Source of the DNA: Elusimicrobia bacterium RIFOXYD2_FULL_34_15
GTDB taxonomy: Bacteria > Elusimicrobiota > UBA8919
DNA length: 64,000 nt
Assembly: GCA_001800605.1 (NCBI GenBank)
Contig: MGVS01000068.1
Coordinates: 14,028-78,027 of the forward strand
Reading direction: 5' to 3'
Part shown: piece by piece, positions 25,729-27,488 of the stretch
How positions within the stretch are numbered: position 1 is the stretch's first letter
Layout: each line of letters opens with the position of its first letter
Translations under genes and position numbers: made by a program
Notes under the pieces: generated by a model
Database searches by the model: none
What the model was told of the DNA's origin: nothing
What the model saw: the letters and a program-made list of their open reading frames with translations, nothing else

Positions 25729-26634
25729 ATGCGTTCACCTACTTACGGAATTATCCCGAATATAGCAAAATCTATCAAGAGCGACATATTGCTTCAAATT
25801 TTCAATAATATGTGTCGTGTCAGATATTTTGAGTTAGGTTTGATTGAAGCATTCAAAGAAAAAATTTTTGATAAATTTGTATATCTTTCCTCCGGTCAGG
25901 AATCCATTGCTGCATCAATGTCCCTTGTAATTCCTGATTTTATGATTTTTGCGCAGCATAGATGCCACTCTACTTATTTGTCATTTGGAGGAGATCCTGT
26001 CGCATTACGCGATGAATTGATAGGCCTGCCCAGCGGTACCAGCGGAGGCAGGGCGGGATCAAACTGCCTGCAATATCACAAAAACAACATGACTATGTTC
26101 GGACATCACGGATTAATCGGGGAAAACGTTCCTTTCGGGGTCGGAGCTGCACTTGGAAGCGGAAAACCTGTGGTGTGTTTCTTTGGTGACGGAGCTGCAG
26201 AAGAGGATTATGTTTTTGCGGCAATGGGGTTTGCCGTAACACATAAACTGCCGGTATTTTTTGTATGTGAAGATAATAATCTGTCGGTCCTTACCACTAT
26301 TGATAAGCGGCGGTCATGGAGCATGACAGAAGTAGCAAAAGGACTTGGAATGCCTGCTGTGGATATTACGGATGACCCTTGGACCGTTTACAGAAAAACA
26401 CAGGAATTAAAAGATACTCTTCCGGCTTTTATTAATATCTATACCTGCAGGGCGTATTGGCACAATAGCGTAGGAACAGACGGGCCTCCCGAATGGGACA
26501 GGTTTAAAATAGTAAAAGATGAATTAATCAAATTGGGAATGGGAAAACAAATCGAAGAGATAGAAAATAAAATTAAAACTTCAATGGAACAAATATGGGA
26601 CAAAAAACTGTTGCAGAAACTATTAAAGAAATAA
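25729..26634 (+). CDS. Thiamine-diphosphate-dependent dehydrogenase E1 component, alpha subunit (standalone)
   Basis: 301 aa. SGQESIAASMSL, GDGAAEEDYVFAAMGFA and CEDNN motifs of the E1_dh family. Confidence 0.75.
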   Translation: MRSPTYGIIPNIAKSIKSDILLQIFNNMCRVRYFELGLIEAFKEKIFDKFVYLSSGQESIAASMSLVIPDFMIFAQHRCHSTYLSFGGDPVALRDELIGLPSGTSGGRAGSNCLQYHKNNMTMFGHHGLIGENVPFGVGAALGSGKPVVCFFGDGAAEEDYVFAAMGFAVTHKLPVFFVCEDNNLSVLTTIDKRRSWSMTEVAKGLGMPAVDITDDPWTVYRKTQELKDTLPAFINIYTCRAYWHNSVGTDGPPEWDRFKIVKDELIKLGMGKQIEEIENKIKTSMEQIWDKKLLQKLLKK

Positions 26635-27488
26635 CAAGAAAACATTTGACTGAAGACAACGGGCTTCTTCTGGGAGAAAGCATTACCGCCGTAGGATGGG
26701 TTAATAATACCGTTCCGGATTGTAAAGGTATTATTGAGCTTCCAATGACAGATGTTGCAGGCGCCGGCATTGCGGTTGGCGCTGCAATGGTCGGACGACG
26801 CCCGATATTTGTTATAAGATTTCAGGATTTTTTGGTTTTGAACGGTAGCCCTTTGATTTTCTTTGCGGCAAAAATAAAGGAACTGCACGGTAATTGCGCG
26901 CCTGTTTTTGTCAGGGCGATAGCGGCAGAAAATTTCGGGCCTTGCCACTCGGGAGTCCTTCATAGCATTTTTATGCATTTTCCCGGTTTCCGTGTCTGTT
27001 CACCGATGACGCCTGGAGAATATGAAAAAATCTGGCAGGATTATATGGAACATGACGACCCTATGATTGTTAGCGAACACCGCGCGAGCTATAAAAATAC
27101 GGAAGAGTTGAATGATGTCTTAGAAAAAAATGCAGATATAACACTTTACCCGGTTTCAGCAACAAGATTTGAAGCTGTAAAGGCGGCACAAATGCTGAAA
27201 AAGGAAGGAATAATATGCAACATTATAAATATTCTATGGCTGAAACCTTTCGAACTGACTAAACGTCTTATCGATCCTTTGACTGAAACAAAGAAAGGAC
27301 TGGTTATAGATCCGGGCCATGAAATAGCTGGCGCTTCCCGCTCAATCGCTTACGAACTTATGTATGCAACAAATTGTAAAGTCGGAGCGCTGGGTTTAGA
27401 AGATAAAACCAAATGTCTTTATGAACCGCTGCAAAACAAATATCCTGACGCGGAAAAAATTTACAAAGCAGTTAAAAATATGATTTAG
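26595..27488 (+). CDS. Thiamine-diphosphate-dependent dehydrogenase E1 component, beta subunit (transketolase-like pyrimidine-binding + C-terminal domain)
   Basis: 297 aa. Overlaps the alpha subunit by 40 nt. Pyrimidine-binding-domain-like N-terminus. No E2 or E3 nearby. Confidence 0.7.
   Translation: [297 protein letters not shown]

Follow-up and report, generated by a model that had tools for sequence, protein, structure and literature searches.

What does a thiamine diphosphate (ThDP)-dependent E1 alpha/beta pair do in a surface-glycan locus that offers it no E2 or E3 partner? We address this question for a 64,000-nucleotide stretch of Elusimicrobia bacterium RIFOXYD2_FULL_34_15 (contig MGVS01000068.1, positions 14,028 to 78,027 of the forward strand; "the window" hereafter), in which the two subunit genes lie at 25729-27488. 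The initial annotation had proposed that the pair adds a two-carbon (C2) branch to a keto-sugar, and our analysis supports this proposal, with gene context and analogy to known systems as its basis. With moderate confidence, we read the pair as an alpha-KADH2-type carboligase that, without E2 or E3, would transfer a C2 unit from pyruvate onto a GDP-4-keto sugar during surface-glycan biosynthesis. The gene structure, domains, conserved catalytic motifs, clade and neighborhood, which were established directly for the pair, are given first.

Domain structure and family scores of the gene pair

The two genes overlap, and the span and the overlap reported in the initial annotation are exact in the list of open reading frames (ORFs):

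25729..26634, plus strand: E1 alpha-like subunit (PP domain; binds the ThDP diphosphate and Mg), 301 aa, ATG start, PF00676
26595..27488, plus strand: E1 beta-like subunit (Pyr and transketolase-C domains), 297 aa, ATG start, PF02779 and PF02780
26595..26634, plus strand: alpha/beta overlap of 40 nt in different frames, translational coupling

The overlap is kept in relatives, where the commonest values are -40, -37, and -28 nt, and separate gene calls in three related loci (L001-L003) also give 40 nt. Homologues match down to E = 3e-176, so that we regard the genes as real rather than as products of chance; on the opposite strand, the ORF at 26439..26978 is taken to be a shadow ORF.

Pfam scans, which covered the plus-strand ORFs of at least 120 aa in the window, assign the alpha chain to E1_dh (PF00676, 3e-22), with a partial TPP_enzyme_C match (7e-8, residues 116-196) over the shared ThDP motif, and the beta chain to Transket_pyr (PF02779, 1.8e-13) and Transketolase_C (PF02780, 5e-8). 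An alpha E1_dh domain with the GDG-X(25-30)-N motif, together with beta Pyr and transketolase C-terminal domains, is the mark of a heterotetrameric E1 fold, and by these sequence features the pair forms both chains of an E1-like, ThDP-dependent enzyme of the heterotetramer type, which the TEED database classes as alpha-KADH2. The best matches in the PDB are the human and Geobacillus pyruvate dehydrogenase (PDH) E1 alpha and beta chains. The scores against the NCBIfam models for PDH E1 are nevertheless low, at 112.2 bits for alpha (TIGR03182, cut-off 393.85) and 81.5 bits for beta (NF006667, cut-off 321). The beta chain aligns to PDH E1 only as far as residue 255 of 297, and the alpha C-terminal tail departs from PDH E1 alpha past about residue 200.

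Other ThDP enzyme types were considered and rejected. A YerE-type single chain (TPP_enzyme_N/M/C) is ruled out by the split E1 alpha/beta organization, with TPP_enzyme_C matched only in part. Transketolase and DXS are ruled out by their marginal scores (22.8 bits vs a cut-off of 488 and 18.9 bits vs 466, respectively) and by the alpha chain, which is of the E1_dh type and not of the transketolase N-terminal type. For phosphonopyruvate/sulfopyruvate decarboxylase, the family match is marginal or absent, and the window holds no PEP-mutase domain.

The pair stands apart from dehydrogenase complexes

The initial annotation had pointed to the absence of E2, E3, and lipoyl genes nearby, and this absence extends over the full 64 kb and 83 related loci. 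In the window, the Pfam scans found no 2-oxoacid_dh, biotin_lipoyl, or Pyr_redox domain, and a six-frame scan found neither the E2 motif 'DHRxxDG' nor the E3 motif 'GGxCxxxGCxPSK'. The same motifs are absent from the 83 related loci, and Pfam detects no such domains in L001-L003. The pair thus has neither a score above the PDH E1 cut-offs nor a lipoyl-E2/E3 partner in the window and the 83 loci.

To place the pair among E1 enzymes, we built a neighbor-joining tree of 126 E1 alpha sequences, comprising the window, 24 locus homologues, and representatives of a 1.84-billion-protein library; the tree also took in source-labelled acetoin dehydrogenases, P0228 (which carries the human PDH E1 alpha active-site motif), and the second E1 pairs of some loci. 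The window belongs to a clade of 57 sequences, recovered in 40 of 40 bootstraps, and no internal branch of the tree is longer than the one that sets this clade apart (0.489, against a median of 0.046). The clade was drawn at this longest-branch bipartition; a single regular-expression motif gave no clade, as some members deviate. The phylogenetic comparison suggested in the initial annotation separates the pair from the other E1 alpha chains sampled, those of PDH and acetoin dehydrogenase type included. Two members, P0122 (628 aa) and P0124 (619 aa), are natural one-chain alpha-beta fusions, 47-50% identical to the window alpha chain.

Members of the clade are 45-88% identical across phyla. 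At E <= 1e-30, no more than 53 of the 1.84 billion 50%-identity representatives match. The best 120 matches in a 5.8-billion-protein database are nearly all about 301 aa long and 60-88% identical, with sources in Elusimicrobia, Daviesbacteria (candidate phyla radiation, CPR), Deltaproteobacteria/Thermodesulfobacteriota, Planctomycetes, and KSB1. Among GTDB species representatives, at least 159 stretches carry a relative, and our survey kept 80 of the 159. These 80 come from Elusimicrobiota, Ignavibacteria, Ca. Brocadia, Nitrospirae, Magnetococcus, Magnetospirillum, Geomonas limicola, Verrucomicrobiota, Omnitrophota, Chloroflexi, Lachnospiraceae/Oscillospiraceae/Acutalibacter, Pelagibacteraceae (SAR11), Parcubacteria, Methanosarcinales, and several DPANN archaea. 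One Elusimicrobiota locus (L004) is almost collinear with the window.

The E1 alpha, E1 beta, and DJ-1 genes (25729-28203) have a GC content of 0.39-0.415 vs 0.323 for the window, and their GC content at third codon positions (GC3) is 0.36-0.37 vs 0.21-0.31 in most flanking genes. The identity seen across domains of life and the raised GC and GC3 point to horizontal spread of the cassette, and suggest that block 25729-28203 was acquired horizontally.

These results bear on the reading of the pair as an ordinary catabolic E1 (for pyruvate, acetoin, or a branched-chain 2-oxoacid) served by E2 and E3 genes at another site of the genome. Such a role would suit the fold and the top PDB matches, which are those of PDH E1 alpha and beta, as well as the retention of both His residues used in the reductive acylation of lipoamide. 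However, this reading has to face the low PDH model scores, the C-terminal ends that do not align to PDH E1, the distinct clade, the lack of E2/E3 in 83 loci of many phyla, a synteny made up exclusively of glycan genes, and the presence of the clade in DPANN and CPR organisms of minimal metabolism. We consider it extremely improbable and close to refuted: as far as the window and the related loci reach, neither the appearance of E2/E3 genes nor a clustering with catabolic dehydrogenases, which the initial annotation had named as evidence against its proposal, was found.

The active site is conserved but has Asp at the cofactor-activating position

Throughout the close family, the alpha ThDP/Mg motif GDGAAEEDYV...EDNN shows no variation; in the wider clade, it takes the form GD[GA]...DN. 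The remaining alpha signatures are QHRCH, GHHGLIGEN, and CRxxWH in the close family, and QHRxH, GHxGLxG[DE], and CRxxWH in the wider clade. In the alignment, alpha Arg78 and His80 match Arg90 and His92 of human PDH E1 alpha. Alpha His245, in the CRxxWH signature, falls outside the HMMER alignment to the human chain; we take it to correspond to the catalytic His263 of human E1 alpha, on the basis of a manual alignment to the human, G. stearothermophilus, and branched-chain 2-oxoacid dehydrogenase (BCKDH) E1 alpha segments (YRYHGHS in PDH E1 alpha). Beta His118 lies opposite His128 of the Geobacillus chain 1w85_B and is invariant in the family.

At the cofactor-activating position, the window beta chain lacks the canonical Glu of the E1 fold. 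Asp53 lies opposite Glu59 of 1w85_B, in a stretch that is ungapped and well conserved, and the position is Asp in 74 and Glu in 6 of the 80 clade members. Excluded from this count are three further 'Glu' beta sequences in the alignment, which belong to the second, canonical E1 pair of L012, L058, and L075. Each of these loci has two different E1 pairs in one glycan cluster (L012 at 7969-9940 and 9989-11766, L058 at 4680-6688 and 9902-11772, L075 at 3-1722 and 9989-11670): one pair is of the window clade, with beta Asp, and the other is canonical-looking, with a beta chain of about 350 aa and Glu. In L012, the one locus of the three that was scanned, the canonical-looking pair scores 242 (alpha) and 248 (beta) bits against the PDH models.

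An Asp in place of a near-universal Glu could mean that ThDP chemistry was abolished and that the pair is a catalytically dead scaffold, which merely organizes the pathway enzymes. This is very unlikely in our view: position 53 is acidic (Asp or Glu) in 80 of 80 members, and across phyla, at 45-88% identity, no change is seen in the ThDP/Mg motif, in either His, or in many residues of the active site, as under purifying selection on such a site. Because the position admits only Asp or Glu and the cofactor and catalytic residues are invariant, we favor instead a working enzyme in which an unusual residue activates the cofactor, with function probably retained.

The conserved neighborhood is rich in nucleotide-sugar enzymes

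Window proteins, supplemented by four L002 seeds, served as queries against every ORF of the 83 loci, and the frequencies of the neighbors refer to those 45 species-level loci that have at least 6 kb to either side:

E1 beta: 100%
Short-chain dehydrogenase/reductase (SDR) sugar enzymes: 96%
B12-binding radical S-adenosylmethionine (SAM) enzymes: 91%
DegT-like proteins: 80%
GHMP kinase (HddA-like): 76%
DJ-1: 58%, often directly adjacent to the pair
Nucleotidyltransferase: 42%
UxaA-like dehydratase: 40%, usually no more than two genes from the pair
Fcl-cupin fusion: 36%
HAD: 31%
NUDIX: 27%
GmhA-like SIS: 13%

Directly 3' of E1 beta, a B12-binding radical SAM gene is most frequent (22 loci), and directly 5' of the pair the commonest genes are an SDR (16) or DJ-1 (9). 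In L001, the SDR directly 5' of E1 alpha has GDP-mannose 4,6-dehydratase as its best NCBIfam match (152 bits, below the cut-off of 415). The minimal loci, found in Firmicutes, read SDR, ColD-like, SDR, SDR, E1 alpha, E1 beta, SDR. A literature search for a cassette combining radical SAM, GHMP kinase, thiamine, DJ-1, and glycosylation returned nothing relevant.

RfbH is the best family match for all of the DegT-like neighbors. At the alignment column of the catalytic Schiff-base Lys, 54 of the 56 DegT-like proteins of L001-L083 have His (in motifs such as FSTFFSHHISTMEGG and FSLYVAHIITTGEGG). The exchange of this Lys for His is a hallmark of the 3-dehydratases ColD and E1/RfbH, which depend on pyridoxamine 5'-phosphate (PMP), and it marks the DegT-like neighbors, at the level of sequence, as ColD/RfbH-type 3-dehydratases and not aminotransferases. 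With this assignment, the near-constant partners of the pair would be enzymes that make an NDP-4-keto-3,6-dideoxy sugar.

The family matches of the other neighbors concern the identity of the sugar. Among NCBIfam models, the kinase is nearest HddA, the nucleotidyltransferase is nearest mannose-1-phosphate/heptose-1-phosphate guanylyltransferases, the SIS proteins lie just under the GmhA cut-offs, and several SDRs come closest to GDP-fucose synthase and 4,6-dehydratases. Because of these matches, the substrates are probably GDP-linked and derived from heptose or mannose. A phosphomannose isomerase (PMI)-type cupin occurs alongside the pair in 43 of 80 loci, compared with 8 of 80 for GmhA, and given this rarity of GmhA-like SIS genes the cupin may be the sugar-phosphate isomerase of the pathway. 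DJ-1 occurs together with the PMI-type cupin, fused or free, in 37 of 39 loci, and together with the UxaA-like dehydratase in 22 of 25.

Genes around the pair in the window

In the window itself, the pair is flanked by the following genes:

20603..21601, plus strand: GHMP sugar kinase, HddA-like (anomeric, heptose-7-phosphate or related), PF00288/PF08544; HddA 160 vs 600 bits
22030..22962, plus strand: Fcl-like SDR (GDP-4-keto-6-deoxy sugar 3,5-epimerase/4-reductase type); GDP-L-fucose synthase 421 vs 500 bits
22973..23950, plus strand: NDP-sugar 4,6-dehydratase-like SDR (Gmd-like), PF16363 GDP_Man_Dehyd 2e-75
23944..24879, plus strand: SDR epimerase/reductase, candidate branch or ring ketoreductase, PF01370 7e-32
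24886..25725: 279-aa ORF that stops 3 nt before the E1 alpha start, in no Pfam/NCBIfam family
27631..28203, plus strand: DJ-1/PfpI protein, PF01965 2e-48; TIGR01382 168 bits, above the cut-off of 139
28277..30004, plus strand: Fcl-like SDR fused to a type-II phosphomannose-isomerase-like cupin (Pfam/NCBIfam)
30005..31549, plus strand: UxaA/GarD-family sugar-acid dehydratase, PF20629 2e-82; PF04295 8e-35
31605..32237, plus strand: HAD-IA phosphatase (beta-PGM/YqaB-like), PF13419 2e-33; TIGR02009 124 bits
32239..34187, plus strand: two more Fcl-like SDRs (family scans)
34192..34785, plus strand: NUDIX hydrolase, nucleotide-sugar hydrolase type, PF00293
34779..37518, plus strand: two B12-binding radical SAM enzymes, probable C-methyltransferases (family scans)

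The neighbors named in the initial annotation (the UxaA-like dehydratase, DJ-1, and radical SAM enzymes) are therefore real, and its description of a nucleotide-sugar locus fits a window of pilus and surface-glycan genes with a Gmd-like dehydratase three genes 5' of the pair. This protein matches the dTDP-glucose dehydratase, LegB, and Gmd models, each below cut-off, and is the probable supplier of the 4-keto acceptor. The HAD protein is, by its family matches, a probable sugar-phosphate phosphatase. The cupin half of the fusion shares 47% identity (1e-39) with the cupin of 269 aa that stands free in other loci (e.g., L002 13598-14407). The ORF at 24886..25725 has a sub-threshold resemblance to CmcI/rhamnosyl O-methyltransferase (PF04989, E = 0.026) and no counterpart in the 83 related loci.

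Known branching enzymes provide the precedent

E1 pairs without E2 or E3 are known among NDP-sugar 4,6-dehydratase and reductase genes: AviB1/B2 (avilamycin), Pau11/12 and Plm8/9 (both paulomycin), and KbDH (kibdelomycin). The avilamycin precedent cited in the initial annotation is real, and the group now includes a member characterized in vitro, KbDH-alpha/beta (PMC4425429, PMC12247030). In paulomycin, sugar branching is assigned to Pau11/12 from knockout and complementation (PMC4425429), and genetic evidence assigns the same step to Plm8/9 (PMC4802897). KbDH-alpha/beta, grouped as alpha-KADH2, couples pyruvate to sugar-like ketones in vitro (PMC12247030). The precedent set thus consists of genetics for AviB1/B2, Pau11/12, and Plm8/9 and of in vitro work on KbDH (PMC4425429, PMC4802897, PMC4753412, PMC12247030). 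The likeness of the window pair to AviB1/B2, Pau11/12, and KbDH rests on the shared E1 fold, gene context, and published descriptions.

There are also differences. The actinomycete pairs come from antibiotic clusters, act on dTDP-deoxyhexoses or attached sugars, and measure about 325 + 345 aa, whereas the window pair (301 + 297 aa) lies in a surface-glycan locus with GDP-/heptose-type genes, a UxaA-like dehydratase, DJ-1, and B12-binding radical SAM enzymes, is a member of a clade that spans many phyla and includes archaea, and has Asp for the cofactor-activating Glu. A 2025 review places alpha-KADH2 branching enzymes in actinomycete secondary metabolism and YerE-like enzymes in lipopolysaccharide (PMC12247030). 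In yersiniose biosynthesis, a 4,6-dehydratase and a 3-dehydratase make the 4-keto-3,6-dideoxy sugar that is the acceptor of YerE, and reduction follows; ErwE, MMAR_2332, and MyGE catalyze the corresponding step, their donors being hydroxylated 2-keto acids of greater length (PMC9306805). The window pair resembles these four in its predicted chemistry, in the logic of 4,6-dehydratase plus PMP-dependent 3-dehydratase, and in serving surface glycans (PMC9306805). The YerE group differs in being single-chain and acetolactate-synthase-like (decarboxylase superfamily), in using CDP-sugars, and in drawing donors from class II aldolases.

With the E1 alpha2beta2 enzymes of PDH, acetoin dehydrogenase, and BCKDH, the pair shares the fold, domain order, ThDP motif, alpha-His, and beta-His, and it is set apart from them by the lack of an E2/E3/lipoyl partner, the glycan-only context, the divergent alpha C-terminus, the beta Asp, and the distinct clade. 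Transketolase and DXS are alike in ThDP-dependent two-carbon transfer to a sugar carbonyl, and the beta chain has the transketolase Pyr and C-terminal domains. What is new is the combination of an E1-type catalyst with a surface-glycan context containing 3-dehydratases; the kind of enzyme itself is known.

Proposed reaction and alternatives

From this context we infer the donor, acceptor, branch position, and product as follows. The alpha GDG...NN motif would bind ThDP at the alpha/beta interface, and beta Asp53 would activate the cofactor. ThDP would then attack an alpha-keto acid, most likely pyruvate, with loss of CO2, and the resulting hydroxyethylidene-ThDP carbanion (an acetyl-anion equivalent) would add to the C4 (or C3) carbonyl of a GDP-keto-sugar. 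This acceptor would be made by the Gmd-like 4,6-dehydratase (22973-23950), and most relatives would also 3-deoxygenate it through the ColD/RfbH-type dehydratase. The product would be a C-acetyl-branched tertiary-alcohol sugar, in which SDRs would reduce the ring or branch ketone and which the B12-binding radical SAM enzymes would probably C-methylate. In all probability, GDP carries the sugar, and D-glycero-D-manno-heptose or mannose is its probable source; a heptose-derived sugar is at least as likely as GDP-6-deoxymannose, given the HddA-like kinase here and the GmhA/HddC-like proteins in relatives. The donor could be other than pyruvate.

Several observations weigh against this scheme. The window is without the ColD-like 3-dehydratase gene present in most relatives; the slot that this gene has in L004 is filled in the window by a WbuC-type cupin and an extra Fcl-like SDR. 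The change of Glu to Asp lowers activity when introduced in other ThDP enzymes. The tight link to DJ-1, the PMI-like cupin, and the UxaA-like dehydratase is not explained by a simple reaction of pyruvate with a keto-sugar. Finally, the loci of the nearest E1 pairs outside the clade (L084-L086) are short and have no visible 4,6-dehydratase, which keeps a role at the level of sugar phosphates in play.

The linkage of DJ-1 and the UxaA-like dehydratase motivates a variant with a longer branch, in which the donor is a 2-keto-3-deoxy sugar acid from the UxaA/GarD-family dehydratase and the pair installs a polyhydroxyalkyl-acyl branch, as ErwE, MMAR_2332, and MyGE do in erwiniose, caryophyllose, and gastriose. 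The substrate of the dehydratase would possibly be a sugar acid freed by the HAD phosphatase, which is weakly similar to 6-phosphogluconate phosphatases. The products of the UxaA and GarD families are alpha-keto acids (2-keto-3-deoxy acids), and as such ideal ThDP donors. The UxaA-like gene lies in the same block as the pair (30005-31549), is found near the pair in 40% of loci, and keeps company with DJ-1 as described above; it is, however, absent from the other 60%. Hydroxylated 2-keto acids do serve as ThDP donors in the scheme for acyl-branched sugars (PMC9306805), yet the known alpha-KADH2-type branching enzymes are apparently limited to pyruvate and C2 branches (PMC12247030). On balance, we think this variant unlikely. 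An equally low probability attaches to its speculative extension, an undescribed mobile 'higher branched sugar' cassette of bacteria and archaea. In such a cassette, UxaA-like, DJ-1, cupin, and HAD proteins would make a hydroxylated 2-keto acid, the Asp-type E1 would ligate it onto a GDP-4-keto-(3,)6-deoxy-heptose, and B12-binding radical SAM enzymes would C-methylate the product, to give caryophyllose-like long-branched nonoses or decoses on pili, flagella, and S-layers of uncultivated phyla.

The E1 pairs nearest to the clade from outside suggest another place for the chemistry. These pairs (L084 5784-7810, L085 8001-10053, and L086 3307-5312), 33-37% identical to the window alpha chain, adjoin genes for an HldE-like kinase/adenylyltransferase, a GmhA-like SIS, GT2, and Wzy_C-TPR proteins. 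They came from a search with P0187, the nearest representative outside the family, which returned generically named E1 alpha proteins only; the loci of these are of the HldE/GmhA heptose kind, and neither antibiotic clusters nor E2-E3 operons. A second, more PDH-like E1 lineage thus appears, from its gene context, to be tied to ADP-heptose genes. This position beside HldE and GmhA shows E1 pairs to be connected more widely with heptose activation, and so leaves room for a role in making a ketose-phosphate precursor. In that case, the pair would act before nucleotide activation as a decarboxylating, transketolase-/DXS-like synthase that converts (hydroxy)pyruvate and an aldose phosphate to an unusual (higher-carbon or deoxy) ketose phosphate. 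The PMI-like cupin or GmhA would then isomerize this product, the GHMP kinase would phosphorylate it at C1, and the HAD protein would dephosphorylate it before it is nucleotidylated. Reportedly, as found by Yokota and Sasajima in the 1980s, the E1 components of PDH and acetoin dehydrogenase can make 1-deoxy-ketoses from aldoses. The HddA-like kinase, in 76% of loci, and the PMI-type cupin, several times more frequent beside the pair than GmhA, would also fit, as would the lack of a visible dehydratase beside the outgroup pairs. Nevertheless, SDRs (96%) and ColD-like proteins (80%) are steadier partners than kinases, the Firmicutes-type loci pair E1 with NDP-sugar-modifying genes only, sedoheptulose-7-phosphate is already supplied by central metabolism, and a 1-deoxy-ketose cannot be isomerized to an aldose. 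We therefore regard a precursor synthase as improbable, and retain the branching of a GDP-4-keto sugar as the preferred function of the pair.

The wider window

The window opens with pilMNOPQ (262-4809), followed by two Wzy_C/O-antigen-ligase-like membrane proteins (6313-9562), one with C-terminal TPR repeats, and then by about 55 kb of glycan genes. The two membrane proteins are possible O-oligosaccharyltransferases of the PilO/PglL type, and in that case the locus would be an island for the glycosylation of pilin or of proteins in general. The glycan run holds glycosyltransferases, a MurJ/Wzx-type flippase, the GHMP kinase, AsnB, a methyltransferase, and seven standalone SDR sugar enzymes in addition to the Fcl-like half of the cupin fusion. 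An islet at 50495-54925 breaks the run with HsdM (a type I restriction-modification methylase), DUF3800, winged-helix, PRiA4_ORF3-like, and RadC proteins.

Eight B12-binding radical SAM genes lie in the window (15050-16615, 18994-20595, 34779-37518, 42573-44063, 45970-47538, and 55366-58216). In addition, the protein of 37518-38945 passes the HemN equivalog cut-off (423 vs 325 bits), and a SPASM radical SAM gene is found at 41360-42535. From this unusually dense set of radical SAM genes, the glycan is expected to undergo extensive C-methylation or rearrangement by radical chemistry.

Implications

C-branched sugars are rare, strongly antigenic, and chemically hard to detect, and ThDP branching enzymes are wanted as biocatalysts for chiral tertiary alcohols. 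Our finding indicates a separate, tightly conserved E1-type clade, present in at least 159 GTDB species representatives that range from Elusimicrobiota and anammox bacteria through SAR11 and gut Firmicutes to DPANN archaea, and specific to surface-glycan loci. New features are how widely the clade occurs among uncultivated lineages, which partners its cassette has, and the unusual residue at its activating position; three cultured carriers, Geomonas limicola Red745, Magnetospirillum sp. UT-4, and Acutalibacter intestini, make the proposal testable. If the proposed function is true, the clade would represent a natural ThDP enzyme with Asp for the canonical Glu and would provide a sequence marker for branched-sugar glycans, and many uncultivated lineages would be expected to display branched sugars of heptose origin, probably with heavy C-methylation, on their surfaces.

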